64,000 nt of DNA. It comes from Patescibacteria group bacterium (lineage in GTDB: Bacteria > Patescibacteriota > Minisyncoccia > Phycocordibacterales > SIBU01). The stretch lies in assembly GCA_040390045.1 (NCBI GenBank), contig JAZJZC010000002.1, positions 101,113-165,112 of the forward strand, read 5' to 3'. Below, piece after piece: positions 9,352 through 47,314 of this stretch. The notes below the pieces were generated by a model, which saw nothing but the letters and a program-made list of their open reading frames with translations, did no database searches and had not been told where the DNA came from. Made by a program: the position numbers and the translations under genes. The first letter of the stretch is position 1, and the number at the start of each line of letters is the position of its first letter.

Positions 9352-9361
9352 ACTGAATAAT

Positions 9362-21744: not shown

Positions 21745-21862
21745 AATACGAAAATACGAAAAAGGTTACGAATATACGAACTTATACAAAAACTTTTTTG
21801 CAGTCACTACGGTTTTCGTACAATTTCGTATTTTCGTTAGTCCGCATTTCGTATCGAAGGAC
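21745..21862. repeat. R1 palindromic intergenic element (TACGAA-hexamer array / core / TTCGTA-hexamer array)
   Basis: Left half is caaTACGAAaaTACGAAaaaggtTACGAAtaTACGAA. Core is caaaaacttttttgcagtcactacggttttcgt. Right half is tttcgtattttcgttagtccgcatttcgtatcgaaggac. The last 37 nt are identical to the R1 copy at 35868-35903. Confidence 0.7.
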
Positions 21863-21909
21863 AGGTGGAGCATTTTCGTCTATACTATAAATTTGATATA
21901 CTTATAAAC

Positions 21910-22317
21910 ATGCCCGAGGATAAAAAACAAAAAGTTTTGATTATTGACGACGATGAGTTTCTTTTGAATATGTACTCGATGAAATTTAAAAAGTCGGGTT
22001 TTGAAATTGATACCGCGAAGAGCGGTAGTAGTGCGCTCAGTAAGATAAAAGAGGGTTCCAACCCTGATATTGTATTGCTTGATTTGGTAATGCCTGACAT
22101 GGATGGGCTAGAACTTTTAGGGACGTTGCGTAAGGAAAAATTGCTACCGAACGCTTCGGTTATTATTTTGAGTAATCAGAATCAACAGACAGATGTCGAC
22201 CGAGCGAAAAGTCTCGGTGTTGCTGGGTACATCGTTAAGGCCAGCTCTATTCCATCGGAAGTAGTGAGCGAAGTGGAACGAATTATTGCAACACCGGGCG
22301 CGAGCGTGAAAAAATAA
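21910..22317 (+). CDS. single-domain CheY-like response regulator (PilH/PilG-like receiver)
   Basis: Start MPEDKKQKVLIIDDDE; the phosphoacceptor Asp lies in LLDLVMPDMDG. The listed ORF begins at a GTG inside the R1 repeat, so the ATG at 21910 is preferred. Confidence 0.7.
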   Translation: MPEDKKQKVLIIDDDEFLLNMYSMKFKKSGFEIDTAKSGSSALSKIKEGSNPDIVLLDLVMPDMDGLELLGTLRKEKLLPNASVIILSNQNQQTDVDRAKSLGVAGYIVKASSIPSEVVSEVERIIATPGASVKK

Positions 22318-22326
22318 TGTAAACCA

Positions 22327-23394
22327 ATGTCAATTGATTACAACAAAGAATTGGAGGAGCTCATTGAGTACGTCATTAAAGAAGGCGGGTCTGATTTGCA
22401 TATTTCTGTAGGACGTCCACCGACTATTAGAGTGGCCGGCTCTTTAATTCCACTTGTCAAAAAGCCGAAACTGACAGAGGCCGACACCATGAGTCTTATT
22501 GAGATACTTTTAACTCCTGATAAGAGAGAACGTTTTTTGAGGGAGCATGAAGTGGATTTTTCCTATAGCTACAAAAATCGCGTCAGGTTTCGAGGTAACG
22601 GTTTTTTCCAACAAGAAAAAGTTTCGATTGCTCTGCGATTAATTCCCAAGGATATCAAAAATTTCGCTGACCTTTCTTTACCACCAATTTTGGAAACCTT
22701 TGCCCAGAGGCACCAGGGATTTTTCTTGGTTGTCGGCCCGATCGGCCAAGGAAAAACGACAACTCTCGCTTCAATGATCGAGTACATCAATACCACTCGA
22801 GCAGAACATATTATGACTATCGAAGATCCGATAGAGTATGTCTACGAAGAAAAAATGTCGATCATTGACCAGCGCGAGGTGGGCATTGATACCAAAGATT
22901 TTGCCAAGGCGCTCAGTAGTGTGTTTCGCGAAGATATAAATGTGGTGATGATTGGAGAAATGCGCGATCCGGAAACTATTTCGACCGCGGTTACCGCCGC
23001 TGAGACCGGACACTTAGTGCTTTCCACCTTGCATACCAATAACGCTTCGCAAACCATTGACCGTATTATTGACTCTTTTCCTTCTGGCCAGCAAGAGCAA
23101 ATTAGAATTCAACTCGCAGGAAGTTTGACTGGAATATTTTCCCAGCGATTGATCCCTCGAATTTCTGGGGGTTTAATTCCAGCCTACGAACTTTTGATTA
23201 ACAACAACGCCGTGGCCAACTTGATTCGCGAAAAACGTACTCACGAAATCGATACAATTATTGAAACGGGATTACAGCTTGGCATGATCGATATGAATCG
23301 CACCTTGGCAGATCTCGTTCGGGCAGGGGAGATTAGCAGTGAGAACGCTTTGTTGTATTCAGTAAATCCGAAGTCGTTGGAGCACCTTATGTAA
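22327..23394 (+). CDS. pilT: twitching-motility retraction ATPase PilT
   Basis: GPIGQGKTTT Walker A, and HLVLSTLHTNNASQTIDRI His box / PilT motif. 355 aa. Confidence 0.85.
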   Translation: MSIDYNKELEELIEYVIKEGGSDLHISVGRPPTIRVAGSLIPLVKKPKLTEADTMSLIEILLTPDKRERFLREHEVDFSYSYKNRVRFRGNGFFQQEKVSIALRLIPKDIKNFADLSLPPILETFAQRHQGFFLVVGPIGQGKTTTLASMIEYINTTRAEHIMTIEDPIEYVYEEKMSIIDQREVGIDTKDFAKALSSVFREDINVVMIGEMRDPETISTAVTAAETGHLVLSTLHTNNASQTIDRIIDSFPSGQQEQIRIQLAGSLTGIFSQRLIPRISGGLIPAYELLINNNAVANLIREKRTHEIDTIIETGLQLGMIDMNRTLADLVRAGEISSENALLYSVNPKSLEHLM

Positions 23395-23395
23395 C

Positions 23396-23546
23396 GATAC
23401 GAAAATACGAAATGAAAACGAAAATACGAAATCATACAAAAACTTTTCCGGTGCCATTACGGTTTTCGTTTATAATTTTGCTCACACGTTTAATAAATGC
23501 GTCAGTTTTCGTATAGTTTCGTATTTTCGTATAATAATTTCGTATC
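23396..23546. repeat. R1 palindromic intergenic element (copy 2)
   Basis: Left half gaTACGAAaaTACGAAatgaaaaCGAAaaTACGAAatcatacaaaaacttttccggtgccattacggttttcgtt. Right half 5x TTTCGTA. It fills the whole pilT-pilC spacer. Confidence 0.7.
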
Positions 23547-24752
23547 ATGTTATTTAATTACCAAGCACTCGACAATCAAAGCCAGACAGTCAAAGGTTCA
23601 ATTGATGCTATTTCAATTGATGTAGCGATCAGTTCTCTTCAGCATAGAGGATTTATTATTTCCTCGATTGCTCCTGCATCGGGCGGCACTGGTTTGAACA
23701 TGCAGATTAACTGGTTCAATCGTATCAAGACAAAAGATATTGTGCTTCTCTCAAGGCAACTTGCCACGCTTTTTCAAGCCCAGGTTTCTGCGTTAAGAAT
23801 TTTCCGGTTGATTTCGGCTGAGGCTGAAAATCCAACCCTTCAGTCTAAGCTTTTAGAAATTGCCGACGACTTGCAAGGCGGCAATTCTATTTCTAAATCG
23901 CTTTCAAAACACCCAGATGTTTTTTCTGATTTTTATGTCAACATGGTTCGTTCCGGTGAAGAGGCGGGGAAGCTCGATCAAACGTTCGAATATCTTGCTG
24001 ACTATCTTGAACGCTCGTATGAAATTCTTTCCAAGGCTCGTGGCGCCTTGATATACCCGGCGTTCGTAGTTGTGGTGTTTATTTCCGTGATGGTCTTGAT
24101 GCTCGTTCTTGTGATACCAAACTTAAGCGCCACCTTAATTGAGTCTGGACAGGAAATACCTGTGTACACGAAAGGTGTTATTGCTGTCAGCAATCTTTTT
24201 GTCCATTACGGTATTATTCTTTTAATTGTTGTAGTTGGGGGAGGCGTCGGTATTTGGAGGTGGGGGAAGACAAAAACTGGAGCTTTAGCCATTGACACTT
24301 TTAAATTAAAAGTTCCATACCTCGGCACTCTCTATAGCAAAATTTATTTAGCTCGTATTTCAGATAACCTAAACACATTGTTGCAGTCTGCTATACCAAT
24401 TGTTAAAACCTTGGAAATTACATCCTCTGTTATCGACAACGTAGTATATAAGGCGATTTTGAGTGACACGATTGAAGGGGTCAAGGCGGGGAACTCAATT
24501 TCAGATTCCATGGGACGACACCCAGAAATTCCAGGTATCATGATCCAGATGATGAAGGTGGGAGAAGAAACCGGTGAGCTCGGATCAATTCTCAAAACCT
24601 TATCTCGCTTTTATGCCCGTGAAGTTTCTAATGCAGTCGATGCACTTGTTAGTCTCATTGAGCCAGCCATGGTGGTAGGTCTTGGATTGGGCGTCGGATT
24701 CCTCTTTGCTGCCATCCTTATCCCGATTTACAACATCTCGGCGGCGCAATAA
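23547..24752 (+). CDS. pilC: type IV pilus inner-membrane platform protein PilC
   Basis: 401 aa with duplicated T2SSF domains. Downstream of pilT. Confidence 0.8.
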   Translation: MLFNYQALDNQSQTVKGSIDAISIDVAISSLQHRGFIISSIAPASGGTGLNMQINWFNRIKTKDIVLLSRQLATLFQAQVSALRIFRLISAEAENPTLQSKLLEIADDLQGGNSISKSLSKHPDVFSDFYVNMVRSGEEAGKLDQTFEYLADYLERSYEILSKARGALIYPAFVVVVFISVMVLMLVLVIPNLSATLIESGQEIPVYTKGVIAVSNLFVHYGIILLIVVVGGGVGIWRWGKTKTGALAIDTFKLKVPYLGTLYSKIYLARISDNLNTLLQSAIPIVKTLEITSSVIDNVVYKAILSDTIEGVKAGNSISDSMGRHPEIPGIMIQMMKVGEETGELGSILKTLSRFYAREVSNAVDALVSLIEPAMVVGLGLGVGFLFAAILIPIYNISAAQ

Positions 24753-24760
24753 ACACATAG

Positions 24761-25210
24761 CATGTAACACGTAACATGGAGCATGGAACAGAAGAGTCAA
24801 ATACGGAGAAAACATTCCACCAGAAGCTCCAGTTAAAAATTGATGAGTATGTCCACGGGGTGTATGCACTTAGTAAAAAATTCCCAAAGGAGGAAGCGTA
24901 TGGCATAACCTCTCAGCTAAGGCGAGCAAGTCTTTCTGTCCCGCTTAATTACATTGAGGGGTATGCGCGACAGAGGGATAAGGTCTACAAAAATTTTCTT
25001 GAAATTTCCTACGGTTCCCTGAAAGAATCCTTATATCTGATTAAGTTTTCTTATGACGAAAATCTAATTTCTAAAGAACAATATGAAAAATATATTAGTC
25101 TAGGAGATGAAATAGGCGCAATGATATGGTCAATTTTGCGCAAAATCTAGTCTTCTGGCCTCTTTATCCCCCCTTGTTGCATGCTACGTGCTCCATGTTC
25201 CATGATTCAG
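24761..25210. mobile_element. R2-family palindromic element carrying a four-helix-bundle gene
   Basis: Left end catgtaacacgtaacatggagcatggaacag (24761-24791). Right end atgctacgtgctccatgttccatgattcag (25181-25210) contains the reverse complement of the same acatggagca / catggaaca motifs. Confidence 0.5.
24776..25150 (+). CDS. four-helix-bundle protein (TIGR02436-like, the '23S rRNA intervening-sequence protein' family)
   Basis: KKFPKEEAYGITSQLRRASLSVPLNYIEGYARQ matches the family's conserved core. The N-terminal MEHGTEESN residues are partly encoded by the repeat end. Confidence 0.6.
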   Translation: MEHGTEESNTEKTFHQKLQLKIDEYVHGVYALSKKFPKEEAYGITSQLRRASLSVPLNYIEGYARQRDKVYKNFLEISYGSLKESLYLIKFSYDENLISKEQYEKYISLGDEIGAMIWSILRKI

Positions 25211-25352
25211 CCCGTTATCCACACCCCTTTTCAAACTTGAAACGAAAGGAGTATAATAGACCCATAGTAAATAACAGCCACTCTGAATGTATTAAGGAGA
25301 GGGCGGTCGAGCGGTTTAAAAAAATTATTAATTATTAAAATTTTTTAACATA

Positions 25353-25718
25353 ATGAAAAATTCAAAAGGTTTTACCCTTATCGAACTTTTGGTAGTTATC
25401 GCAATTATCGGTATCTTGTCTTCTGTTGTTTTGGTTAGCCTTAACAGTGCTCGCCAGAGAGCTAAGGATGCCGCCTTCAAAGCTGAGGCCACTGGAATAG
25501 TTCCAGGACTTGTAAGCATCTGTGATCAGGCCAACGTTGTTGTCGGTGATTTGGGTAGTCCTTCTACTTACTCGGCAGCTGCTGCTTTTGGAACAATTGT
25601 TCAGAGCTGTGGATCTTCTGGAACAGGAGTTTGGACTATGACAGTGACTGCAACCAACGGCGCCGTTTCTACTGCTGATGTTGCTGCATGTTCACAAAGT
25701 GGTTGTACATTCAGTTAG
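25353..25718 (+). CDS. type IV pilin (major-pilin candidate)
   Basis: [26 protein letters not shown] prepilin motif. 121 aa with a C-terminal Cys pair (CSQSGCTFS). Confidence 0.8.
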
Positions 25719-25740
25719 ATCTTTTTCTCAAGCTAGTTTA

Positions 25741-25776
25741 AAAAAACAAAGCCCTTTGCCGGGCTTTGTTTTTTTA
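25741..25776 (+). terminator. rho-independent terminator (caaagccctttgccgggctttg + T-tract)
   Basis: Perfect hairpin followed by tttttttaaa directly after the pilin stop. Confidence 0.7.
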
Positions 25777-26025
25777 AAGCGAACGAAAAATGTTACTATG
25801 GGGAGAGGCCTTTTTGATATAACATTTACGCCTTTTGCACTGGGGATTGGCGGAGCTTGTACTTCAGCTACTATGACGCAAGGATATGTTACATATGTGG
25901 GGTGTTAACAAGTCATTAAATTAAAATTGTTACCCAATGACCCTTTCCGCTCCGTGTCGAATGTGTGGATAAGTAGATTTCACTTTTAGTGTACAATAGA
26001 GCAATTAAGAACTAATTTATTTTTT

Positions 26026-26394
26026 ATGCAGTTACGCCAAAAAGGTTTTACTTTAATTGAGCTTCTCGTGGTTATCGCAATTATCGGTATTCTGTCTAGT
26101 GTTGTTTTAGTAAGTCTTAATAGCGCTCGCCAAAGGAGTAAAGATGCTGCATTTAAGGCAGAAGCTCGTGGTGTGGTGGCTGGAATAAATAGTATATGTA
26201 ATGAGGTTTCAGTAGTGGTTGCTGATCTCAAAACGCCATCAACTTACAGTGCCGCTGCCGCTTTTGGAACCATGGTGCAGAATTGCGGTTCTTCAGGAAC
26301 AGGTGTGTGGACTATGACTATAACGGCAACCAACGGGGCAGTTTCTACGGCTAATGTTGCTGCATGCTCCCAGGGTGGTTGTACTTTCAGTTAA
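26026..26394 (+). CDS. type IV pilin (tandem paralogue)
   Basis: [27 protein letters not shown] prepilin motif. About 70% identical to the preceding pilin, with a near-identical C-terminal disulfide-loop region. Confidence 0.8.
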   Translation: MQLRQKGFTLIELLVVIAIIGILSSVVLVSLNSARQRSKDAAFKAEARGVVAGINSICNEVSVVVADLKTPSTYSAAAAFGTMVQNCGSSGTGVWTMTITATNGAVSTANVAACSQGGCTFS

Positions 26395-26478
26395 TTCTTT
26401 AAGTATCAAAGAATACTATTGTGTGAGAGGCAGGAATCTGTCTAGGGTGGTTGTTTATATTTTCTTAACTATTTATTT

Positions 26479-26964
26479 ATGAATGATCAGACAAAAATCA
26501 AAAGCTACGGATTTACTCTCATCGAACTTTTGGTTGTGATTGCTATTGTGGGTATCTTATCTTCCGTGGTATTGATGAATTTAAATGGTGCTCGCGCAAG
26601 GTCTCGAGATGTGAAGCGTATTGCCGATGTCAAAAGCTTACAACTCGCGTTGGAATTGTATTTTGATAACAATCGTAGCTACCCCGCAACACTTTCAGTT
26701 TTGACTGCGGCGCCAACTTACATTTCCCCAGTTCCGACTCCTCCCGAAGGTGGTAGTTATGTGTATAGGCCGATTACTATCGGAGGTACTTGTAATAGCT
26801 ATCATTTGGGTGCGGTTTTGGAACAAAGTACTAGTGCTGAATTACTAACTGATGCAGACCCTCCTACGGGAAGTGTTTGCAGTGGAGCTGCGGATTTCAG
26901 TGGTGTAAGTACTGACTGTGGGACTGGTTCTGGAGCGGAGAGATGTTTCGATGTTGCGCCATAA
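26479..26964 (+). CDS. type IV pilin-like protein
   Basis: [32 protein letters not shown] prepilin motif. 161 aa with a C-terminal Cys-rich region. Confidence 0.75.
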   Translation: MNDQTKIKSYGFTLIELLVVIAIVGILSSVVLMNLNGARARSRDVKRIADVKSLQLALELYFDNNRSYPATLSVLTAAPTYISPVPTPPEGGSYVYRPITIGGTCNSYHLGAVLEQSTSAELLTDADPPTGSVCSGAADFSGVSTDCGTGSGAERCFDVAP

Positions 26965-26988
26965 ATTAAAATAGCCAATTTTGTTGAG

Positions 26989-27024
26989 AAAACGCCGGCT
27001 GGGCTTTGCCCAGCCGGCGTTTTC
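26989..27024 (+). terminator. rho-independent terminator (aaacgccggctgggctttgcccagccggcgtttt)
   Basis: 14-bp perfect stem with a T-tract. Confidence 0.7.
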
Positions 27025-27080
27025 GTTTAGCGGAAAAGTTACTCACGGAGTATAATAGAGGAGTGGGTCCCGTAGTAGAA

Positions 27081-27196
27081 AATGGCGTTGCTGTTTGCTA
27101 CAACAAGTTTTTAAAGTAACGCTAGATTGTAATTTACAAAACTTAATTTAATTTAAATTTGGTACAAGTTGCTTCACAGCAAACGACGCCATTTTT
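27081..27196 (+). promoter_or_regulatory. long-range inverted repeat (aaaatggcgttgctgtttgc ... gcaaacgacgccatttttc) in the pilD leader
   Basis: Arms of about 18 bp, roughly 80 nt apart, directly upstream of ATG 27206. Confidence 0.3.
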
Positions 27197-27205
27197 CACT
27201 ACCGG

Positions 27206-28069
27206 ATGGAAATTCTAACAACATTCCTCTTTTTTATTTTCGGCACCATTGTCGGAAGTTTTTTAAATGTTGTCATTCTCCGCTTTAACACTGGTGGGAC
27301 GCTCGGAGGGAGATCCCATTGTTTTACGTGTGGCAAAGACATCGCGTGGTACGACCTCGTGCCGTTGTGGAGTTTTTTATTTTTAGGCGGCACATGTCGT
27401 TTTTGCAAAAGTAAAATTTCATTTCAGTATCCCTTAGTTGAATTTCTAGCTGGTTTAATTTTTGCCATATCTTTCTGCCAATTTTCTCCTCAAGTTTCCT
27501 TGCTCGGCCTCTACCATACTACCGACTATCTACTATTCTCTATCTCTCTCATCATCTACTCTCTCTTGATTGTTATTGCCGTATATGATTTCCGTCACCA
27601 AATTATTCCCGACCTGTTAGTTTTTTTGTTCGCGATTTTTGCCTTGCTCAAATTATTTTTAATGAACGATGTGTCTGCGTTGTTTATGTTTCCCGGACTA
27701 CTCAATCTTTTAGCCGGACCACTGTTAGCCTTGCCGCTATTTCTCCTGTGGTTAGTTTCTCGTGGCAGATGGATTGGGCTTGGCGATGCCAAACTGATGC
27801 TCGGCGTTGGTTGGTTTTTAGGTTTCACTCTTGGCGCCTCGGCAATGATTATCGGTTTTTGGATAGGAGCTCTTGTTTCTGTCTTACTTCTCGGTCTCGG
27901 GAAACTTATGAAAGCCAGTTTCGGGCAATTTCTGGGTTTGAGTTTCAGCCTGAAAAATCTTACAATTAAGAGCGAAGTTCCTCTGGCGCCGTTTCTCATC
28001 CTCGGATTCTTTATAGCGGCCTTTTTCAAAATTGATGTTTTGGGATTGAGTTCAATGTTTTCTATATGA
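27206..28069 (+). CDS. pilD: prepilin peptidase PilD (A24 family)
   Basis: N-terminal tetracysteine CFTCGKDIAWYDLVPLW...CRFCKSKI, polytopic membrane topology. 287 aa. Confidence 0.8.
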   Translation: MEILTTFLFFIFGTIVGSFLNVVILRFNTGGTLGGRSHCFTCGKDIAWYDLVPLWSFLFLGGTCRFCKSKISFQYPLVEFLAGLIFAISFCQFSPQVSLLGLYHTTDYLLFSISLIIYSLLIVIAVYDFRHQIIPDLLVFLFAIFALLKLFLMNDVSALFMFPGLLNLLAGPLLALPLFLLWLVSRGRWIGLGDAKLMLGVGWFLGFTLGASAMIIGFWIGALVSVLLLGLGKLMKASFGQFLGLSFSLKNLTIKSEVPLAPFLILGFFIAAFFKIDVLGLSSMFSI

Positions 28070-28079
28070 ATTAAGAATT

Positions 28080-28763
28080 ATGAATTATGAATTAAGAAAA
28101 CAAAAAGATAAGTCGCGGAAGTGCTTTCCCAGGTTTTTCCATAATTCCTACTTCCTGATTCCTAATTCGCCTAAAAAGGGTTTTTCCCTGATTGAGCTTA
28201 TGGTCTCAATTGCCATTTTTACGCTTTTGACAAGCATTGTGATGGTAAGCCAGCAGAAATTTGGTGGTCAGATTTTGATTACCAATCTCGCGTATGATAT
28301 CGCGCTCGGTATTCGCGAAGCTCAGGTGTATGGTATCAGTGTTAAAACTACGACAGGTGGGAAGTTTGATAAAAGTTACGGTATTCATTTTAAAGATCCT
28401 AATTATTATGTTTTGTTTGTGGATAGTAGCCCGGCGAATGGAAAATATGATGGGCCAGATAGTGGCAGTGCCTGTATGGCAGGCGGGGAGTGTCTTAGTT
28501 TTTTTAGAATAGAAAAAGGGAATGCGATTACTCGACTATGTGCCGATAACGAATGTACTGACTCTGGGGCTGGCAATCAAATTTCTGGACTTGACCTTTT
28601 ATTCACAAGACCTGAACCCGATCCAATGATCCATCCGTTGGATAACGCGGGCGCTCAAATGCTCGGTGCGTTTTCCACAGCTCAAGTGACGGTCGCCTCA
28701 CCGCAGGGTCTCACACGAACTATTAATATTTTAAAGAGCGGTCAAGTGTCGGTAGTTAATTAA
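28080..28763 (+). CDS. minor pilin / pseudopilin
   Basis: KKGFSLIELMVSIAIFTLL prepilin motif. It follows an unusually long (about 30-aa) leader, so the start is uncertain. Confidence 0.6.
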   Translation: MNYELRKQKDKSRKCFPRFFHNSYFLIPNSPKKGFSLIELMVSIAIFTLLTSIVMVSQQKFGGQILITNLAYDIALGIREAQVYGISVKTTTGGKFDKSYGIHFKDPNYYVLFVDSSPANGKYDGPDSGSACMAGGECLSFFRIEKGNAITRLCADNECTDSGAGNQISGLDLLFTRPEPDPMIHPLDNAGAQMLGAFSTAQVTVASPQGLTRTINILKSGQVSVVN

Positions 28764-28768
28764 TTGAC

Positions 28769-29347
28769 ATGAAACTTTCGCTGAAAAATTCAAAAGGCTT
28801 TACCCTCATAGAAATTTTGGTTTCCATCGCGCTTTTTGGTTTTGTGATGCTTGCCACTACGTCAACATTATTGAGTCTTGTTGATGCTAATCACAAAGCA
28901 CAATCAACTAAAACCGCAATCGATAACCTGAGTTTGGCGCTTGAAAGTATGACGAGAAATATTAGAACTGGCACACAATATAACTATGCTGGCGGCCATC
29001 ACTGTTCATCAACGTCGGGTGGAAGCACGGATGGGTATACCGGTATAAGTCTTAAAGACCAGAAAGGTAATGACCTAAGTTATTCTTGGGTTGAGGGGAG
29101 TGACGATATTAAAAAAACCCTTAACAGTAATACCTTCACTATCACCTCTCCAGAAATTACTATAGATCGTTTGTGTTTTTATATTGCGGGAACTAGCGCA
29201 ACTGACGGGACCGGTGAAGAACAGCCGATTGTTTCCGTGACGATTGGCGGAGTAGTCAACAACACGATTGCCGCAGGGGCCAAGCAAAAAACGGTTTCTC
29301 GTTTTGATATTCAAACATTAGTTTCGCAGAGAGTTTTGGATATATAA
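28769..29347 (+). CDS. minor pilin / pseudopilin
   Basis: [28 protein letters not shown] prepilin motif. Confidence 0.7.
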   Translation: MKLSLKNSKGFTLIEILVSIALFGFVMLATTSTLLSLVDANHKAQSTKTAIDNLSLALESMTRNIRTGTQYNYAGGHHCSSTSGGSTDGYTGISLKDQKGNDLSYSWVEGSDDIKKTLNSNTFTITSPEITIDRLCFYIAGTSATDGTGEEQPIVSVTIGGVVNNTIAAGAKQKTVSRFDIQTLVSQRVLDI

Positions 29348-29351
29348 TTAT

Positions 29352-29954: not shown

Positions 29955-29958
29955 AAAA

Positions 29959-30067
29959 CACGGAACATGGAGCACAGAACACAGAACAGAAAAAAAGAAG
30001 GAAAGAGCCGCGCGCTTTGCGCGCGGCCTTTTCCCCATGCTGCATGCTCCATGATTCATGCTCCATG
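29959..30067. repeat. R2 palindromic element (no cargo) enclosing a terminator hairpin
   Basis: cacggaacatggagcacagaacacagaacag ... gccgcgcgctttgcgcgcggc ... catgctgcatgctccatgattcatgctccatg. Confidence 0.65.
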
Positions 30068-30497
30068 CCAAAAGGGTTTCGCCCTCTTGTTCGCCGTGCT
30101 CGCCTCAAGCGTTTTTCTCTCAATCGGTATCGCCATCTGGAATATTTCTTTGCGCCAGGTTCTTTTTTCTTCTTTCGGTCGGGAATCACAAGTGGCTTTT
30201 TACGCCGCTGATGCTGGCATTGAGTGTGCACTGTTTTATGACACTAAACATGATTATTTTAATCCCGATGATCCTGCTACTGTAATGAATTGTGGTGGAG
30301 GAGATGTGATGATTGATCCAGATGCCAATCCCGTTTTTACCATATCGGATATTAGGCTCACGGATTCTGATACAGGTCCCTGTGTCGATGTGACAGTTAC
30401 GAAAGATCTCATCACCACGGTGGAAGCTCGAGGGCATAATACTTGCGACACTTTAAGTCCGACACGAGTAGAGCGCGGGTTGAGAGTAACCTACTAA
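30051..30497 (+). CDS. pilin-like protein lacking Glu5 (GspK/PilX-type minor pilin candidate)
   Basis: MIHAPCQKG|FALLFAVLASSVFLSIGIAIW. The first ATG of the listed ORF (29967, MEHRTQN...) lies inside the R2 repeat and is probably not used. Confidence 0.45.
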   Translation: MIHAPCQKGFALLFAVLASSVFLSIGIAIWNISLRQVLFSSFGRESQVAFYAADAGIECALFYDTKHDYFNPDDPATVMNCGGGDVMIDPDANPVFTISDIRLTDSDTGPCVDVTVTKDLITTVEARGHNTCDTLSPTRVERGLRVTY

Positions 30498-30502
30498 TCC
30501 CC

Positions 30503-32521: not shown

Positions 32522-32524
32522 TTA

Positions 32525-33202
32525 TTAAAAACTCATTTGTTGAACCCGGTATTCAGACAGAGGGATTACGCGGCCGTCCTTTTTTAGTTCAATATTATTC
32601 CATAATACAAACATTTCGTCTGTTGGATAGGATTTAGCGGCACTTTCTCCTGGTGCACCAGTCCACGGATCAAAATTATTAAAATCTTGTGTAAAAATTG
32701 ACGCTAAACTAATTTTTTTACCATCGTTGGCAACAAGATATAGTTCTACATTTTCTGATCCAACGTCTTTTTTAGACTCTAAGATTGAATATGTATTTAA
32801 GTCTATGCTCGTGATAAGAGAACCATCTAATTTACAGCACTCGAGAATACGATTATTATCCTTAGAAAAATAACCATTTCTAAAATAACCGTATGTATTC
32901 AAAATTTTTGATCTGATCAAAAATCCAACATACGCGATGACGACAACAGAACCAATAAACCCGTAATAAACGGCCGGTAGAATAAACAGTAATGCTAGGA
33001 TACCCCGCAAAGTTTCATTCATTAATCCGCCCAACCATCCGCCAAAAGCAGCACTCAGAACAACAAGAAGGCAAAATAATATTAAACAAACTATTGAAAT
33101 AAAAGTAAGGATAACAGCACATACTACTGTTTTTAAAGTTGTTGTTCTTTGGGCAATATAAACCGTGTTGTTATTTCGAGTGTCAAAATTTAGGGACAAC
33201 AT
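32525..33202 (-). CDS. hypothetical membrane protein
   Basis: 225 aa with two or three TM helices. Convergent with ligA. Confidence 0.4.
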   Translation of the reverse strand: MLSLNFDTRNNNTVYIAQRTTTLKTVVCAVILTFISIVCLILFCLLVVLSAAFGGWLGGLMNETLRGILALLFILPAVYYGFIGSVVVIAYVGFLIRSKILNTYGYFRNGYFSKDNNRILECCKLDGSLITSIDLNTYSILESKKDVGSENVELYLVANDGKKISLASIFTQDFNNFDPWTGAPGESAAKSYPTDEMFVLWNNIELKKDGRVIPLSEYRVQQMSF

Positions 33203-33278
33203 ACTTTATAATACTATCACGAAAATAAGGTAAAGAAATTATATTAACCAATTTTTGGTTTTGTGTTACCATTGAGCC

Positions 33279-33563
33279 ATGATCAGCATTAAAGAAATTG
33301 AAAAATTGGCTGAGTTGAGCCGGCTTCAGTTGTCAGAAGAGGAAAAACAAGCTTTTCAGAAAGACCTCGAATCTATTTTGGGGTACATAGATCAGATTCA
33401 GAAAGTTTCCGCTGATTTGTCGAGCGAAAAAAAAGCTGGCGTCATTCACAATGTGTTACGCGATGACACTGCTCCGTATGCGAGTGGCATGTATACCGAA
33501 ATTTTGATTTCCGCCGCACCAAAAAGGGAAAGTAACTATCTCAAAGTAAAGAAGATACTTTGA
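33279..33563 (+). CDS. gatC: Asp/Glu-tRNA amidotransferase subunit C
   Basis: MISIKEIEKLAELSRLQLSEEEKQAFQKDLESILGYIDQI is a typical GatC. 94 aa. Confidence 0.8.
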   Translation: MISIKEIEKLAELSRLQLSEEEKQAFQKDLESILGYIDQIQKVSADLSSEKKAGVIHNVLRDDTAPYASGMYTEILISAAPKRESNYLKVKKIL

Positions 33564-33570
33564 GATAAAT

Positions 33571-33685
33571 TCGAAGCACTAAGCACGAAATTCGAAACAA
33601 ACCTTTAAATTTCAATGTTTAAAATTTCAAAAATTAGAACTTAGATATTGTTTCGAATTTCGATATTCGTATTTCGTGCTTAACA
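33571..33685. repeat. R1-related palindromic element (aagcacgaaattcgaaac ... gtttcgaatttcgatattcgtatttcgtgctt)
   Basis: Inverted-repeat arms 33581-33598 and 33650-33681 in the gatC-gatA spacer. The ttcgaatttcg / atttcgtgctta motifs recur at 43050-43095. Confidence 0.6.
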
Positions 33686-33686
33686 T

Positions 33687-35123
33687 TTGTTTCATATGAT
33701 CGATTTAAAAAATCTTACAATCACCAAAGCTCACAACTCCTTGATGAAAGGAGAATTTACTGCTGTGGAATTAGCGACCGCTTACCTCGAAGAAATTACT
33801 TTAAAAAATAAGGAGCTCAACGCCTACATCGAAGTCTATGGCGATGTTTTGTCCCAGGCTGAGGCCGCGGATAAAAAAATTAAAGATGGTAGCGCTACTA
33901 CTTTGACAGGAATTCCAATTGCGCTTAAAGATAATATTTTAATTCAGGGCAAACATGCGAGCGCGTCTTCAGGCATTTTGGAAAATTATGTAGCAAGTTA
34001 CGATGCGACAGTTATCACCAAATTAAAAGCGGCCGGCGCGGTATTTTTGGGACGAACCAATATGGATGATGCCGCCATGGGTAGTTCAACGGAAACTTCT
34101 TTTTATGGAACCTCGCGAAATCCTCACGACACTTCGCGCGTGCCAGGAGGTTCAAGTGGTGGCTCGGCAGCGGTGGTTGCCGCTAATTTGGCACTCGTGG
34201 CTTTAGGGTCAGACACGGGCGGTTCGATTCGCCAGCCAGCCGCTTTTTGCGGTTTGGTGGGACTTAAGCCAACCTACGGATCAGTTTCAAGAAGTGGTTT
34301 GATCGCTATGGCTTCGTCACTCGATGTCATTGGTCCAATTACTAAAAATGTTGAGGATGCAAAAATACTTTTTGATTGTATCAAGGGAAAAGATTCTCTA
34401 GACAGCACTTCATGGGATTTACCAAAATTGCCAGACATTTCAAAAGCTGGAAAGAAATTTGTTATCGGTGTGCCGAGAGCCTTTACCGAAAGTGAGGGCA
34501 TTGATCAAAGTGTGACGGATAATTTCAAAGTCTCAATTGAAAAATTAAAAAGTCTTGGGCATACCATTACAGATATCGTTCTGCCAAATATTGCTGCTTC
34601 ACTCGCGGTCTATTATGTGTTGATGCCCGCTGAAGCTTCAACCAATCTTTCGCGTTTTGATGGTATTAAATACGGCTTGTATATTCCCGGAAATAATTTA
34701 CTCGAGGACTACAAACTTTCAAGAGGTAAGGGCTTCGGTCGCGAAGTGCGTCGCAGAATTTTGCTCGGCGCCTACGTGCTTTCTTCCGGATACTACGATG
34801 CGTACTACAATAAGGCGATTGCGGTGCGAGATGTCATCACTCGAGATTTTGAAAAAGCCTTTGAAGAAGTTGATTTTGTTGTGACGCCAACCACCCCCTC
34901 ATATGCGTTTAAAATCGGTGAAAAATCGAGCGACCCACTCTCAATGTATCTTGCGGATATTTTTACCGTGAGCGCCAACATCGCCAGTATCCCTGCTATT
35001 TCCGTACCGTCGGGTTTTGTTGAAGTTTCTGGTAAAAAATTGCCGCTGGGCTTTCAGTTCATGGCCAAAGCAGGTGAGGAATCTTCACTTTTTTCAATCT
35101 GCAGTGATTTTTGTGGAGAATAA
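33687..35123 (+). CDS. gatA: Asp/Glu-tRNA amidotransferase subunit A (amidase)
   Basis: Amidase signature GGSSGGSAAVVAANLALVALGSDTGGSIRQPAAFCG. 478 aa. The start may instead be M4 at 33696. Confidence 0.9.
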   Translation: MFHMIDLKNLTITKAHNSLMKGEFTAVELATAYLEEITLKNKELNAYIEVYGDVLSQAEAADKKIKDGSATTLTGIPIALKDNILIQGKHASASSGILENYVASYDATVITKLKAAGAVFLGRTNMDDAAMGSSTETSFYGTSRNPHDTSRVPGGSSGGSAAVVAANLALVALGSDTGGSIRQPAAFCGLVGLKPTYGSVSRSGLIAMASSLDVIGPITKNVEDAKILFDCIKGKDSLDSTSWDLPKLPDISKAGKKFVIGVPRAFTESEGIDQSVTDNFKVSIEKLKSLGHTITDIVLPNIAASLAVYYVLMPAEASTNLSRFDGIKYGLYIPGNNLLEDYKLSRGKGFGREVRRRILLGAYVLSSGYYDAYYNKAIAVRDVITRDFEKAFEEVDFVVTPTTPSYAFKIGEKSSDPLSMYLADIFTVSANIASIPAISVPSGFVEVSGKKLPLGFQFMAKAGEESSLFSICSDFCGE

Positions 35124-35141
35124 TTTTAAGTTTAAAAATAT

Positions 35142-35771
35142 ATGTCATCAGAAGTAAATTTTTCACTAACCGGCCTCTATCAGCTAATCTACAATCTTTT
35201 ATCTGGAAAATATTTTGCCGATGGTGGCACGTTGCTGTCACTGTTCCACTCATTTCTAATTTTTATTCGCCCATTTTCTATTTTGTTGACCCTGCTTTTT
35301 TTGACCGGAATTATTTATTGCATCATTCGCACGGGAGAGGTGCTTAATGAAATTAAACACGGAAGCGGTCACGGACACGGAGCTGCTCACGGAGGAGGAC
35401 ACGCTCACGCCGCTCCAAGCGCCGCCGCGCATCACGACCATAGTTCAGAAAATAAGGAAAATCCTCGTTGGGAAAAAATTACTCACCATATCAATTCCAC
35501 CAATCCAAGCGACTGGCGGTTGGCCATTCTTGAGTGCGACATTATTCTCGACGAAATGCTGACCAAGATGGGATATCATGGAGATACTTTGGCTGATAGG
35601 TTGAAGGGGGTAGAGAAAAGTGATTTCCTCACAATCGATCAGGCGTGGGAGGCGCACCGGGTTCGAAATGCTATTGCGCACGATGGTAGTAATTTCCAAA
35701 TTACGGATAGGGAGGCGAAAAGGGTTGTTGGATTGTATGAGATGGTGTTCAAAGAATTTAAGTATATCTAA
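35142..35771 (+). CDS. membrane protein with His/Gly-rich linker and C-terminal HEPN-like (R-x4-H) domain
   Basis: Two N-terminal TM helices, then HGSGHGHGAAHGGGHAHAAPSAAAHHDH, and a C-terminal ...AHRVRNAIAHDGSNFQITDREAKRVV. Confidence 0.4.
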   Translation: MSSEVNFSLTGLYQLIYNLLSGKYFADGGTLLSLFHSFLIFIRPFSILLTLLFLTGIIYCIIRTGEVLNEIKHGSGHGHGAAHGGGHAHAAPSAAAHHDHSSENKENPRWEKITHHINSTNPSDWRLAILECDIILDEMLTKMGYHGDTLADRLKGVEKSDFLTIDQAWEAHRVRNAIAHDGSNFQITDREAKRVVGLYEMVFKEFKYI

Positions 35772-35774
35772 TAT

Positions 35775-35903
35775 TTCAATACGAAAATACGAATTATATA
35801 TACGAACATACGAAATAATACGAAAACTATTCTGGTGTTACTGAAATTTTCGTATCGTTTCGTATTTTCGTTAGTCCGCATTTCGTATCGAAGGACGAGA
35901 CCA
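35775..35903. repeat. R1 palindromic intergenic element (copy 3)
   Basis: caaTACGAAaaTACGAAttatatatacgaacatacgaaataatacgaaaac ... ttttcgtatcgtttcgtattttcgttagtccgcatttcgtatcgaaggac. The 3' 37 nt are identical to copy 1. Confidence 0.7.
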
Positions 35904-35945
35904 AAAAAGTTGATTTTTTAATGGGGAAGTGTATACTGTGGCCTT

Positions 35946-36641
35946 ATGAAAACGCCGATTATATTAGAAGTTTCTCCACGACAACCAAAGGAAAAATTGG
36001 CTGATCTTCGCAGTTCTGGCAAGATGCCAGCGGTTTATTATGGAAAAAAGCAGGCCTCAACTCCTGTATCTGTTTCTTTGGTGGAATTTATGAAAGTTTT
36101 TAAAAAAGCTGGAGAGTCAACTGTTGTGACTTTGAAAACCAAGGAAGGCGAACTCGATTCTCTCATCTATGATGTCGATCGCGATCCATTATCTGACAGC
36201 CCACGACATGCTGATTTTTACGTATTCGAAAAGGGTCAGAAAATTAAAATTAAAATTCCTCTTGAGTTTACCGGAGTGGCTCCTGCAGTCAAAGATCTCG
36301 GTGGAGTTTTGGTGAAAGTGCTTCGTGAAATAGAAATTGAAGCGTCTCCAAAAGATTTACCATCAGTGCTTCATGTTGATGTGAGCACTCTTGTTAATTT
36401 TGAAAGTCAGGCATTGGCCAAAGATATCATTCTTCCAGAAGGTGTAGTTCTCGTTGAGAAACCGGAAGAAGTGGTGGCTTCTGTCTACGAACCAAAAGAA
36501 GAAGTGGTGGAGGTTGCTCCAGTCGATCTCTCGAAGATTGAAGTGGTAGCTAAAGGAAAAGAAGTGAAGGAGGGTGAAGAAGGTGCAGAGGCCGCTGCCG
36601 CTCCAGAAAAAGCTCCTGAAAAAAAGGCTGATAAAAAGTAA
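35946..36641 (+). CDS. rplY: ribosomal protein L25 (Ctc/general-stress form with acidic C-terminal extension)
   Basis: MKTPIILEVSPRQPKEKLADLRSSGKMPAVYYGKK is an L25 N-terminus. 231 aa. Confidence 0.8.
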   Translation: MKTPIILEVSPRQPKEKLADLRSSGKMPAVYYGKKQASTPVSVSLVEFMKVFKKAGESTVVTLKTKEGELDSLIYDVDRDPLSDSPRHADFYVFEKGQKIKIKIPLEFTGVAPAVKDLGGVLVKVLREIEIEASPKDLPSVLHVDVSTLVNFESQALAKDIILPEGVVLVEKPEEVVASVYEPKEEVVEVAPVDLSKIEVVAKGKEVKEGEEGAEAAAAPEKAPEKKADKK

Positions 36642-36665
36642 CTTTACATTTAGAATCTTAAGAAA

Positions 36666-36708
36666 AAACCCATCCGATTCGCCGCGGCGAATCGGATGGG
36701 TTTTTTTC
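36666..36708 (+). terminator. rho-independent terminator (aacccatccgattcgccgcggcgaatcggatgggtt + T7)
   Basis: 16-bp stem followed by tttttttc. Confidence 0.75.
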
Positions 36709-36776
36709 GATACAAGCTTCATCTCAACTTTTGTAGTAGAATTAAGCTATGCCTAGATAGGAGGTTGGCGTTTTTC

Positions 36777-38135
36777 ATGGCTAAAAATTTAAAAATCATC
36801 ATCTTTTTGAGTCTTTTTGTGAGCGTTTTAATGCTCGGCCATTTTACGTGGGCCCAAACTGCTACTGACGACGCTGTGGCCAAACGCCAGGCCGCGCTTC
36901 AAGCAGAGTTGGATAAAACCCAAAAAGATATTGACTACTGGGCAAATATTTTGGCCGGCAAGCAAAAAGAAACCGCCTCAATTTCCCGAGATATTTCTAT
37001 ATTAAATGCAAAAATTGCCGAGGCTAACGCGCTCATTAAAAAGAAAAATATTATAGCTCAGCAACTCGGGAAGGATATAACCGCGAAAGTTGCCACCATT
37101 GAAACACTCGATCAAAAAATGGAAAGGCAGAAGTCTGCTTTAGCAGAACTTATCCGAAAAACCAATGAGGTCGAGAGCTATTCAGTGGGTGAGCTGGTGT
37201 TGAGTGGCAAACCGCTTTCCGATTTTTTTGTGGACTTGGAAGCTTCTGGTTTTATTACCGAATCACTCAATTCTGCACTCGCGCTTGTGCGTGAGACTCG
37301 TATTGAAACAGAAGCGGAGAAAGAGGATTTGAGTAAAAAACAAGCGGCGGAAATTGACGCGCGTAAAGCGGCAGAAGCCGAGCAGAGATTGGTGAAGAAA
37401 AACGAAGAGCAAAAAAAACAACTGTTGGCTGTTAACAAAAATCAAGAAAAAGCCTACCAGAGTATTTTATCTGAACGGCAAAAAGCGGCGGCAAAAATTA
37501 GGTCAGCGTTGTTTGCACTTCGTGATAGTGCCTCGATTCCTTTCGGCACAGCCTATAACTATGCGTTGGAAGTTCAAAAAGTAACCGGCGTGCGCCCAGC
37601 ATTTTTGCTCGCCATTCTAACTCAAGAAACTAATCTTGGTGAAAACGTTGGGCAGTGCCTCGTTACCAATTTGGTTACTGGAGATGGCGTCGGTAAAAAT
37701 ACAGGAACAGTTTTTAAAGGCATCATGAAGCCGACCAGAGACTTAGCGCCGTTTATTAATTTGGCCAGTCGTCTTGGTTTTGATCCTGCTTCTCAGCCAG
37801 TATCTTGTCCTCAGGGCGGAGGGTACGGCGGAGCTATGGGGCCTTCACAATTTATTCCTTCGACATGGGTTGGATACGAAAAAAGAATTGCTGCAGCGAC
37901 TGGTGTGGCAATTCCAAATCCGTGGATAGCTCACGATGCGTTTTTTGCTTCAGCTTTGTATTTGGCTGATCTGGGTGCTGGAGCAGGGGGCTATTCAGCT
38001 GAATCTGCCGCTGCGGCAAAATATTATGCAGGAAGTAATTGGAAAAAAACTGCCGGGCAAAATTATGCTTCGAGCGTCATGGGACACGCTCAAAATATTC
38101 AGGAGAATATGATTGATCCGTTGCAGAATCTTTAG
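36777..38135 (+). CDS. secreted coiled-coil protein with C-terminal MltB/Slt35-like lytic transglycosylase domain
   Basis: Start MAKNLKIIIF lies 7-8 nt after a GGAGG RBS; signal peptide present. ILTQETNLGEN and GAMGPSQFIPSTW motifs are typical of lytic murein transglycosylases. Confidence 0.65.
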   Translation: MAKNLKIIIFLSLFVSVLMLGHFTWAQTATDDAVAKRQAALQAELDKTQKDIDYWANILAGKQKETASISRDISILNAKIAEANALIKKKNIIAQQLGKDITAKVATIETLDQKMERQKSALAELIRKTNEVESYSVGELVLSGKPLSDFFVDLEASGFITESLNSALALVRETRIETEAEKEDLSKKQAAEIDARKAAEAEQRLVKKNEEQKKQLLAVNKNQEKAYQSILSERQKAAAKIRSALFALRDSASIPFGTAYNYALEVQKVTGVRPAFLLAILTQETNLGENVGQCLVTNLVTGDGVGKNTGTVFKGIMKPTRDLAPFINLASRLGFDPASQPVSCPQGGGYGGAMGPSQFIPSTWVGYEKRIAAATGVAIPNPWIAHDAFFASALYLADLGAGAGGYSAESAAAAKYYAGSNWKKTAGQNYASSVMGHAQNIQENMIDPLQNL

Positions 38136-38175
38136 GATAGATTTAAGATTCACGATTCAAGATTTAAGAATGGGA
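38133..38175. repeat. R3 motif (atagatttaagattcacgattcaagatttaagaat)
   Basis: An almost identical 40-nt motif recurs at 45376-45421 after pheS. Confidence 0.5.
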
Positions 38176-38185
38176 AAAGAAAAAA

Positions 38186-38220
38186 GCGGCGCGCATAAGC
38201 GTAACCCTTATGCGCGCCGC
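38186..38220. terminator. bidirectional terminator hairpin (gcggcgcgcataagcgtaacccttatgcgcgccgc)
   Basis: 12-bp GC-rich stem with an A-tract upstream. It serves convergent genes. Confidence 0.6.
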
Positions 38221-38228
38221 AGTTGCTC

Positions 38229-38513
38229 TCATGCTGAAAGTTGTCGTTCAAGTTCTGCAATAAGAAGCCGACTGTCTTCGCCCAGGTCCGGTGAGTAGAC
38301 TTCGACATCCAACCCAGTTTGGGAAGGTGTGGTGGCAGATTCAGCAGGATGTTCCAGCGAGGTTTTGAGAGCCCAAAAGCTGATGTTTCCCCTTACCCAA
38401 TTCCTCACTGCGTTCGGGTTGGATTTTATGTCCTGTTTTAGTTTTTCCTTACTCTCGGCTCGTGAATTGCCGAGGATTCGGGTGGCGGTCAACTCGATGG
38501 CTTTTGTGGTCAT
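38229..38513 (-). CDS. hypothetical small protein
   Basis: 94-aa ORF sitting between a bidirectional terminator and the rpmE promoter. No recognisable motif. Confidence 0.3.
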
Positions 38514-38567
38514 TTCTTTGTTATTTCCAAGGTTTTTCTAAAGCCGATACTAAGCTTTTCCCTACAT

Positions 38568-38596
38568 TTGTCAATTTTAAGTCTTTCTGCTAGACT
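38568..38596 (+). promoter_or_regulatory. sigma70-like promoter TTGTCA-N17-TAGACT for rpmE
   Basis: -35 at 38568-38573 and -10 at 38591-38596, with ATG at 38622. Confidence 0.45.
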
Positions 38597-38621
38597 GCTC
38601 CTATCCGTAATTCACATCTAT

Positions 38622-38852
38622 ATGAAAAAAGACACCCACCCACAATATTTTGCAAAAGCTACTGTTACCTGCGCCTGCGGTAACGTTTTTCACATTGGCT
38701 CTACTAAAGAGAAGATTGATGTTGAAATCTGCAGTGCTTGCCACCCTTTTTATACTGGAAACGATAAGGTTATCGATACCGCCGGTCGCGTTGAACGATT
38801 CAAATCTCGCGCCGCTAAAGTTGCAACAAAGGTTAGCAAAAAGACGAAGTAG
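38622..38852 (+). CDS. rpmE: ribosomal protein L31
   Basis: [46 protein letters not shown] (CxxC...CxxC zinc-ribbon form). Confidence 0.85.
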
Positions 38853-38862
38853 CTTCTCCGGC

Positions 38863-38960
38863 TATACGAAAGGGGTACGAAAATACGAAAAAATACGAAA
38901 GCTTTTTTGGTACCATCACGGTTTTCGTATAGTTTCGTATTTTCGTAATTTACTTTCGTA
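38863..38960. repeat. R1 palindromic intergenic element (copy 4)
   Basis: ctaTACGAAaggggTACGAAaaTACGAAaaaaTACGAAagcttttttggtaccatcacggttttcgtatagtttcgtattttcgtaatttactttcgta. It runs right up to the prfA ATG. Confidence 0.7.
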
Positions 38961-40780: not shown

Positions 40781-40848
40781 CACGTAGCATGGAGCATAAG
40801 ACAGGGACACTATGTTCCATGTTGTGTGCTCCATGTTCCATGAACACC
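40774..40848. repeat. R2 palindromic element between rpsB and tsf
   Basis: cgcgtaacacgtagcatggagcataagacagggacactatgttccatgttgtgtgctccatgttccatgaacacc. It overlaps the rpsB stop and supplies the false MEHKTGTL... extension on tsf. Confidence 0.65.
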
Positions 40849-41854: not shown

Positions 41855-41899
41855 GAGAGAAAAATGTTTCGTGGTCCGTGTTCTGTGGTCTGTAACGTG
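41822..41899. repeat. R2 palindromic element abutting tRNA-Thr
   Basis: cacggaacacagaacacag ... gtggtccgtgttctgtggtctgtaacgtg. It ends 7 nt before the tRNA. Confidence 0.6.
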
Positions 41900-43049: not shown

Positions 43050-43095
43050 TTTTCGAATTTCGGATTTGAGATTTCGTGCTTACACGTTTCGTGTT
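43050..43095. repeat. half-copy of the R1-related motif (ttcgaatttcggatttgagatttcgtgcttacacgtttcgtg)
   Basis: Shares ttcgaatttcg and atttcgtgctta with the element at 33650-33681. Confidence 0.4.
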
Positions 43096-43096
43096 G

Positions 43097-45421: not shown

Positions 45422-45427
45422 AAAATA

Positions 45428-47302: not shown

Positions 47303-47314
47303 TTTTTTCACTAT

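Follow-up and report, generated by a model that had tools for sequence, protein, structure and literature searches.

The window analysed here is a 64-kb stretch of one contig (JAZJZC010000002.1, Patescibacteria group bacterium), and the subject is a family of intergenic palindromes, R1, built from TACGAA and TTCGTA hexamers, together with a second family in the same window, R2, built from 7-nt units. In the window R1 follows a single plan, i.e. three to five TACGAA units, a short centre, and then three to five TTCGTA units, and it was identified in four intergenic copies, all of them gene-less (arms and a short centre, with no enclosed gene). Hexamer clusters are given as + for TACGAA and - for TTCGTA.

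21745-21862, + strand: R1 copy 1, gene-less, in the spacer between a PilB-like ATPase gene and a receiver-domain gene; hexamer cluster 21747-21853, ++++---
23396-23546, + strand: R1 copy 2, gene-less, the entire spacer from the PilT-like stop codon to the PilC ATG; hexamer clusters 23398-23430, +++, and 23508-23544, ----
35775-35896, + strand: R1 copy 3, gene-less, after a 209-amino-acid open reading frame (ORF) and upstream of the conserved promoter of rplY (L25); hexamer cluster 35780-35887, +++++---
38863-38960, + strand: R1 copy 4, gene-less, the whole spacer between rpmE (L31) and prfA (release factor 1, RF1); hexamer cluster 38865-38960, ++++----

The preliminary description had reported four palindromes of this architecture, and both the hexamer clusters and the repeat search agree with it in each case; the start of copy 3 stood, and its end fits better at 35896 than at the 35903 given there, with the conserved promoter coming next. 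In all four copies every TACGAA precedes every TTCGTA. Copy 1 comprises four TACGAA units and one degenerate unit, the centre, and three TTCGTA units with further degenerate ones, copy 3 has five TACGAA units, a 24-nt centre and the right arm, and copy 4 has 4+4 units around the centre AGCTTTTTTGGTACCATCACGGTT, its final unit stopping 1 nt short of the ATG. In copy 2, additional sequence separates the centre from the right arm, leaving an inter-array gap of 77 nt versus 24-34 nt in the other copies. The window contains 35 TACGAA and 23 TTCGTA hexamers (about 18 expected per strand), and the pattern TACGAA-N1-8-TACGAA-N1-8-TACGAA produced 11 matches, all within the four R1 copies, and none in 100 dinucleotide shuffles. 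The repeat search placed the copies in families D7 and D8 with 66-83% mutual identity and recovered their arms as inverted repeats I1-I4, I7 and I16. The tail common to copies 1 and 3 is identical as had been described, over 38-39 nt instead of 37 nt.

The genes flanking each R1 copy are co-directional on the + strand (Pfam). Occupation of the whole spacer, first proposed for all four copies, holds for copies 2 and 4 only, whereas after copies 1 and 3 about 45 nt of spacer remain, with a promoter-like site: AGGACA-17-TATACT overlaps the end of copy 1, and the conserved promoter TTGATT-16-TATACT (35910-35937) lies downstream of copy 3. The R1 elements very probably lie inside transcripts. Rfam 15 at the gathering threshold returned two tRNAs in the window and nothing else, and the intrinsic-terminator scan made no call inside the arm-to-arm hairpins, the stems of which are not G+C-rich. 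The terminator call nearest to R1 (38860-38845, - strand) touches the outer edge of copy 4, and canonical terminators are present elsewhere in the window, e.g. at 38186-38220.

Logan short-read contigs of the same population break inside R1 copies (21833-23546, which is locus L001, and 23519 onward, which is L170), and the other assembly of this population is fragmented at R1 elements. Moreover, one Logan gene call for RF1 (P0002, 400 amino acids) exceeds that of NCBI by 81 codons, since no stop codon interrupts the frame across copy 4. In practice, then, such elements fragment short-read assemblies and mislead gene callers.

R1 is a real and widespread family. A lack of further copies, which the preliminary description had named as refuting, was not observed: a scan of one genome per GTDB species with the pattern TACGAAAATACGAA-N1-30-TACGAA returned at least 120 stretches. 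L numbers denote individual sequence loci, and R1 counts outside the window refer to the scan matches listed. These were mostly Patescibacteria of many candidate phyla, with a minority of Bacteroidetes and others. The matches listed included 53 compact elements, all in the order TACGAA-then-TTCGTA, and arrays in the reverse order were never less than 372 nt apart. Copies 1, 3 and 4 of the window align end to end with copies of other metagenome-assembled genomes (MAGs), including the homologous 24-nt centre AACTTTTGTGGTACCACTACGATT, which is itself partly palindromic, and the aligned copies have five units per arm with spacers of about 2, 4-6, 2 and 4 nt. The Moranbacteria version is a loop-less element of 62 nt. 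The window has its four copies within 17 kb, and at least ten were present in the sampled pieces of a single MAG, CAYHDB01 (L004, L015, L045, L046, L049, L051 and L108). Units were spaced most often by 8 nt (249 cases), followed by 10 nt (97) and 7 nt (75).

Position and polarity relative to genes were consistent. Although the non-coding share of the sampled DNA was 16%, 170 of 201 arrays were intergenic. On the sense strand, TACGAA arrays start at a median of 5 nt past the upstream stop codon, and TTCGTA arrays end at a median of 13 nt, often 0-3 nt, ahead of the downstream start codon. One-armed arrays had the same gene-end polarity (odds ratio 7.5, Fisher p 0.0046) and no overall bias in orientation relative to genes. 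As the element is palindromic, an mRNA from either strand has the A-rich arm ahead of the U-rich one. The asymmetric centre was in sense orientation in 4/4 window copies and divided 3 versus 3 in other genomes, so that the 4/4 is taken as chance, and an orientation bias, suggested earlier as worth a check, was found neither in the centre nor in the strength of the sense-strand fold. The sole rRNA-gene locus in the set (L117) has its R1 copy at 5422-5513, outside the 23S gene (1-2698). Phages were considered as a vector, and none of 13 viral-contig matches to the R1 pattern had the palindromic architecture, giving no sign of such a vector.

The same arms were found around a gene. In four loci (L020, L100, L115 and L092) arms about 400 nt apart enclose a GxxExxY gene, which was assigned to TIGR04256 / PF13366 (PD-(D/E)XK fold), and L100 has copies of both kinds, with and without the gene, whose right arms are nearly the same. 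The GxxExxY gene subfamily was also sampled independently in metagenomes, which gave 25 loci for which both flanks were available. Of these, 16 have two or more TACGAA to the left of the gene together with two or more TTCGTA to its right, and 20 do when the relaxed unit TACNNAW (TACAGAT, TACAAAT, TACGGAT, TACTAAT) was allowed, with reversed arm polarity in 0/25; background windows reach the array counts in about 1% of cases (<1.2%). The gene has its start codon within the left array, and its stop codon is either directly adjacent to the right array or no more than about 45 nt away. In 21/21 loci it reads in the direction of the host gene downstream. The D, E and K of the nuclease motif were invariant in six diverse GxxExxY sequences. 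No solved structure related to GxxExxY was found by sequence, and the PADLOC defence models matched neither GxxExxY nor the four-helix-bundle genes enclosed by arms of this kind. PDDEXK_3 is listed in the literature as being of unknown function.

Two sets of gene-carrying loci stood out by location. The rpsG / fusA spacer hosts a GxxExxY cassette in three different metagenome sequences (L154/L155, L157/L159 and L168, by reading of the flanks), with the right arm ending 2-8 nt before the fusA start codon; either the insertion is old or the str operon has a preferred site there. In L023 (1633-4218 of MAG sequence DAIDAM010000003.1) a single 862-amino-acid ORF, by its appearance a membrane protein of the glycosyltransferase type, includes in frame two GxxExxY domains as well as a gene-less hairpin, each insert being flanked by translated unit arrays (CCGAAT/ATTCGG and ACGCAGAC/GTCTGCGT). 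Cassettes can thus sit inside a coding sequence without a stop codon.

On these grounds we consider it probable that the R1 copies of the window are gene-less forms, resembling intervening sequences (IVS) and REPINs (hairpin-forming doublets of repetitive extragenic palindromic, REP, sequences), of an operon-hitchhiking GxxExxY cassette. They would be either non-autonomous relatives, in the manner of REPINs and their REP-associated tyrosine transposase (RAYT), or leftovers after gene loss. The full cassette consists of a TACGAA-type left arm, a small promoterless GxxExxY gene with its start codon inside that arm, and a TTCGTA right arm, and sits sense-oriented in tight operon spacers, from just past a stop codon to just before the next start. 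When transcribed with the operon, its arms may pair into an imperfect stem of 30-40 bp, which, by analogy to the IVS of 23S rRNA, could keep the insert structurally out of the way and would probably be cut by RNase III. By analogy to REPIN/RAYT, the hexamers may be recognition units for a protein, most likely the nuclease-like one of the cassette itself, mediating spread. The hairpin would limit harm by keeping the flanking genes adjacent, and the elements would be essentially selfish, with secondary effects on the host such as segmentation of the operon mRNA or altered translation starts. The rival explanations, i.e. host-serving hairpins, iteron-like sites, translation-leader arrays, and transposon-derived or REP-type repeats, are weaker.

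Several observations weigh against the cassette origin. The 64-kb window contains no GxxExxY gene, and no remnant of one was present in the centres of the gene-less copies, for which deletion products, independent non-autonomous elements and unoccupied landing sites are all candidates. With only 66-83% identity among them, the copies do not represent a recent burst within the window, and no target-site duplication was evident, as the ends of the R1 copies had no consistent direct duplication. In some Bacteroidetes one-sided tandem TACGAA runs of up to 31 units occur, and thus such arrays can grow by slippage without a cassette. The folding data belong to the same side. Among aligned R1 copies no covariation was found, and across copies the sense strand folded better in 21 and the antisense strand in 25 (G-U pairs 76 versus 104), so the RNA hairpin follows from the palindrome and is not demonstrably selected. 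Finally, some hairpin occupies the rpmE / prfA spacer of every relative examined, with unrelated sequences, and the host could therefore need a structure at that place.

This last point is the core of the first rival, according to which the elements are RNA hairpins serving the host in operon mRNA processing or stability, in attenuation of read-through, or in bringing stop and start codons together for translational coupling. Stable folds accord with it: in line with the hairpins proposed earlier, the R1 elements fold more stably than shuffles on both strands, with minimum free energies (MFE) of -27.9 to -41.9 kcal/mol and z of -3.4 to -7.3 (copy 4: -41.9, z -7.3). Additionally, the stem has its base a few nt away from the stop and start codons, and the downstream genes have no obvious Shine-Dalgarno sequence by reading of the spacers. 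Yet compensatory changes do not support the pairing. Of 23 consensus pairs 22 never vary and one compensatory change was seen, and covariation is uninformative because the paired hexamers never vary. The antisense fold at least as good as the sense fold and the mixed orientation of the asymmetric centre also oppose a function in the transcript, as do the lack of terminator character and the selfish-looking gene that the same arms carry elsewhere.

The relatives provide a further comparison. The closest ones by RF1 are 80-85% identical, Taylorbacteria among them, and the gene order rplY-SLT-...-rpmE-prfA-rpsB-tsf is conserved among the relatives examined. As the check on sister genomes set out in the preliminary description anticipated for mobile copies, R1 was absent from the orthologous rpmE / prfA and x / rplY spacers of all of them. 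The x / rplY spacer of L122 and L123 is 44 nt long and holds the promoter only, and the rpmE / prfA spacer contains an unrelated hairpin in L123, a hairpin of CTAGG units in L128, and a terminator followed by ATTAGTA repeats in L126. The rpsB / tsf spacer has R2-like hairpins in the window and in L129 (GCGTAAC units), and none in L122 and L123. The relatives thus differ at the same spacers, i.e. the occupants turn over and the unit dialects are genome-specific, and the hairpin-free x / rplY and rpsB / tsf spacers of some relatives count against a host need. Altogether we regard the host-serving hairpin as a rather unlikely explanation of R1. The dialects of these spacers comprise CTAGG- and GCGTAAC-type units in L128/L129 (9917-10001 and 11730-11806) and ATTAGTA/TACTAAT units in L126 (1786-1879 and 6251-6349). 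The rplY promoter (TTGAYY-16/17-TATACT; 35910-35945 in the window) is conserved at the orthologous sites of L122, L123 and L128, and only 9 nt separate the end of its -10 box from the ATG, which implies a leaderless or near-leaderless mRNA. An obvious Shine-Dalgarno sequence is absent from most genes of the window, by reading of the spacers.

Column conservation was 94% in the hexamers, 68% in the arm spacers and 39% in the centre. The conserved unit sequence, whether by selection or by common descent, points to recognition by a protein, and to this extent the iteron-like alternative of the preliminary description gained some support over base pairing. Taken as double-stranded DNA sites for a regulator or nucleoid protein of the host, it would also fit the favoured unit spacings of 8 and 10 bp, the strict polarity, and the genome-specific dialects expected of a binding protein that co-evolves with its sites. 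However, the tightly linked genes around copies 2 and 4 leave no space in which a promoter could fit, the arrays keep close to stop and start codons and not to promoters, the family spans several candidate phyla, and there is no DNA-binding gene that adjoins the arrays consistently. Sites for a host protein are accordingly disfavoured and have a slim chance of being the explanation. The sole consistently linked gene is the one inside the cassette, and the iteron idea therefore merges into the cassette explanation, with the enclosed protein as the candidate binder.

The closeness of the TTCGTA arrays to start codons raises a third alternative, in which the U-rich arm is a leader element for translation, e.g. 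a site for ribosomal protein S1 or a cold-shock protein. Intergenic heptamer direct repeats of this kind are familiar as the cyanobacterial STRR repeats. An S1 or cold-shock site was proposed for TAACTGA heptamers ending about 1 nt before starts in Beggiatoaceae, Cyanobacteria and Bacteroidetes (MacGregor 2015, PMC4679880), and heptamer repeats have been described in Nostoc as well (bioRxiv 10.1101/2022.06.06.494920). R1 resembles them in its spacer arrays of 7-8-nt units that often end a few nt before a start codon, in its occurrence in lineages poor in canonical ribosome-binding sites, in a patchy distribution including Bacteroidetes, and in the obscurity of its function; in the window, moreover, the one-armed 7-nt arrays at 28065-28111 and 45382-45428 reach start codons. 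Whereas these are tandem repeats in one direction, R1 consists of two opposed arrays on either side of a centre, with irregular 8/10-nt spacing and a link to an enclosed gene. A leader function leaves the mirror-image TACGAA arm after stop codons, the palindromic centre and the enclosed genes unexplained, and pairing with the left arm would hide the leader, which makes it a very unlikely account of R1.

The elements had also been called REP/BIME-like (BIME, bacterial interspersed mosaic element), which is apt in the loose sense of dispersed, intergenic, imperfect palindromes; nothing pointed to actual REP/BIME membership, with neither a RAYT nor a REP-like sequence found. Dispersed copies with inverted ends, located between genes and missing from the orthologous sites of relatives, would likewise be expected of miniature inverted-repeat transposable elements (MITEs) derived from transposons, or of REPs moved by a DDE or RAYT transposase. 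This origin is highly improbable for R1: besides the missing target-site duplication, no transposase or RAYT (Y1) was present among the 21 ORFs of the window that were scanned, each arm consists of an array of short units and not of a single terminal inverted repeat, and the linked genes are GxxExxY and four-helix-bundle genes, not transposases.

The cassette interpretation leans on comparison with known systems, of which REPIN/RAYT, reportedly described by Nunvar in 2010 and by Bertels and Rainey in 2011, is one. These too are short, dispersed, intergenic palindromic doublets with lineage-specific repeat sequences, and a small gene of one kind stands between inverted copies of the repeats. 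In the present elements the linked gene is of the PD-(D/E)XK or four-helix-bundle type instead of an HUH/Y1 transposase, the arms are made up of hexamers in periodic arrays, the gene copies are sense-oriented in operons (21/21), and mobility is presumed for the cassette. Correia/NEMIS elements of Neisseria and the Rickettsia palindromic elements are small palindromes co-transcribed with their neighbours, Correia RNA being cut by RNase III; Correia elements have defined 26-bp terminal repeats and TA duplications, and the rickettsial ones can sit in frame inside genes, like the cassettes of L023. Unlike R1, both lack unit arrays and an enclosed nuclease-like gene. Integron attC cassettes likewise combine a promoterless small gene with an imperfect palindrome, co-oriented with an upstream host promoter, whereas here there is no integrase, attI or cassette array, and the palindrome is split around the gene in place of standing at one end.

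The second family and one further cassette extend the comparison within the window.

24752-25207, + strand: R2 gene-carrying copy, with arms of the 7-nt units CATGGAG/CATGGAA/ACGTAAC (repeats D12, I15, I18)
29957-30068, + strand: R2 gene-less hairpin in the spacer of two pilin-like genes, its loop containing a GC-rich hairpin; z -5.4
40772-40842, + strand: R2 gene-less hairpin filling the rpsB / tsf spacer; z -5.4
41813-41895, + strand: R2 gene-less hairpin of GACAGAT/GAACACA units just upstream of a tRNA gene; z -4.9
47311-47658, + strand: GIY-YIG cassette, with a 31-nt inverted repeat (I8) that is 94% complementary, G+C-rich and non-periodic

The units CATGGAG, CATGGAA, GAACACA and GACAGAT occur across the R2 family. 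In the gene-carrying copy the arms (24752-24802 and 25175-25207) enclose an ORF at 24776-25150, co-oriented with pilC, which encodes a four-helix-bundle "23S rRNA IVS protein" (PF05635, E 1.5e-27; TIGR02436, E 3.5e-28), and in the predicted MFE structure the arms pair around this ORF. In the hairpin at 29957-30068 the right arm probably supplies the ATG at 30065, by reading of the sequence. The gene in the GIY-YIG cassette (PF01541, E 9.5e-18) is a pseudogene, its frame being interrupted by TAA at codon 38; it points in the same direction as the upstream gene and is tightly bracketed by the inverted repeat, and 47311-47658 is a third cassette of the same logic as R1 and R2.

Since R2 brackets a gene of the 23S rRNA IVS type, R1 and R2 are tied to intervening sequences rather than to REPs. 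The 23S IVS of Coxiella carries the same type of gene, has a 28-bp terminal stem cut by RNase III, and contains tandem GACAGAT heptamers in variable number at the cut site (PMC4990558); the same heptamer is present in the window hairpin at 41813-41895. IVS-type inserts, short gene-less ones among them, are carried by rRNA genes of the Candidate Phyla Radiation (CPR) (PMC11270868). The 23S rRNA IVS of Coxiella, Leptospira and Salmonella resemble the present elements in being inserts with complementary, stem-forming ends, an optional small S23p / 23S_rRNA_IVP gene (the family of the R2 ORF 24776-25150), and a reputation as selfish and horizontally spread. Unlike them, R1 and R2 lie between protein-coding genes and not in rRNA helices, the gene associated with R1 is GxxExxY and not S23p, and the arms are longer, with 4-5 units on each side; RNase III cleavage is presumed here by analogy. 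A diversity-generating retroelement (bAvd and reverse transcriptase; L126 4101-5489, L127 4101-5488) lies in the prfA-to-rpsB interval (2850-5529) of a Taylorbacteria relative, another use of the Avd/S23p four-helix bundle nearby.

More tentatively, R1, R2 and the GIY-YIG cassette may belong to one undescribed class of mobile elements, of which the 23S rRNA IVS would be the special case that landed in rRNA; this is possible, although we rate it clearly below the cassette origin of R1 itself. Such elements would carry a small promoterless gene (GxxExxY, four-helix-bundle S23p/Avd-like, or GIY-YIG) between inverted arms, which in R1 and R2, with their 7-8-nt units, could be multimeric binding sites of the enclosed protein. 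They would ride in sense orientation in essential operons, even in frame inside genes, and might be tolerated since the zipped stem rejoins the upstream stop and the downstream start codon, with the gene-less copies as non-autonomous progeny. The components are of known kinds, namely intervening sequences, intergenic heptamer repeats and palindromic dispersed repeats, and no description of such cassettes outside rRNA, of arms made of unit arrays, or of an association with GxxExxY was found in the literature. The rRNA IVS, "four helix bundle" and "GxxExxY" families are very common annotations of obscure function and origin, which are now placed in a broader context: in reduced CPR genomes, bracketed cassettes and gene-less shells occupy the narrow spacers of operons for ribosomal proteins, translation factors and pili.

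Half-elements related to R1, as described earlier, exist at two further sites of the window with CGAAAT/ACGAAA-type units.

33572-33676, + strand: CGAAAT/ATTTCG-type hairpin in the gatC / gatA spacer; inverted repeat I20; z -4.55
43050-43096, - strand: one-armed array of ACGAAA type, immediately behind the stop codon of the glycosyltransferase gene 43097-44383 on the same strand

The sequence TAAGCACGAAAT is common to the array at 43050-43096 and to 33572-33600 of the hairpin. One-sided arrays of the 7-nt units AAGATTT / ATGAATT, with no inverted partner, were located at 28065-28111, 38137-38183 and 45382-45428, the first and the last running into the start codon of the next gene, and resemble the heptamer direct repeats of Beggiatoaceae, Cyanobacteria and Bacteroidetes. 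The ORF at 9293-18145 (2950 amino acids) has many internal repeats (D1-D6, D9, D13-D15, D17-D19) with the recurring motif GGNAANGTTGGNATCGGNAC; it lies upstream of the pilus genes and probably encodes a giant, repetitive surface protein. Paralogous pilin-like genes have a conserved N-terminal segment in common (25364-25663, 26040-26339, 26509-26595 and 28782-28840; repeats D5, D10 and D11).

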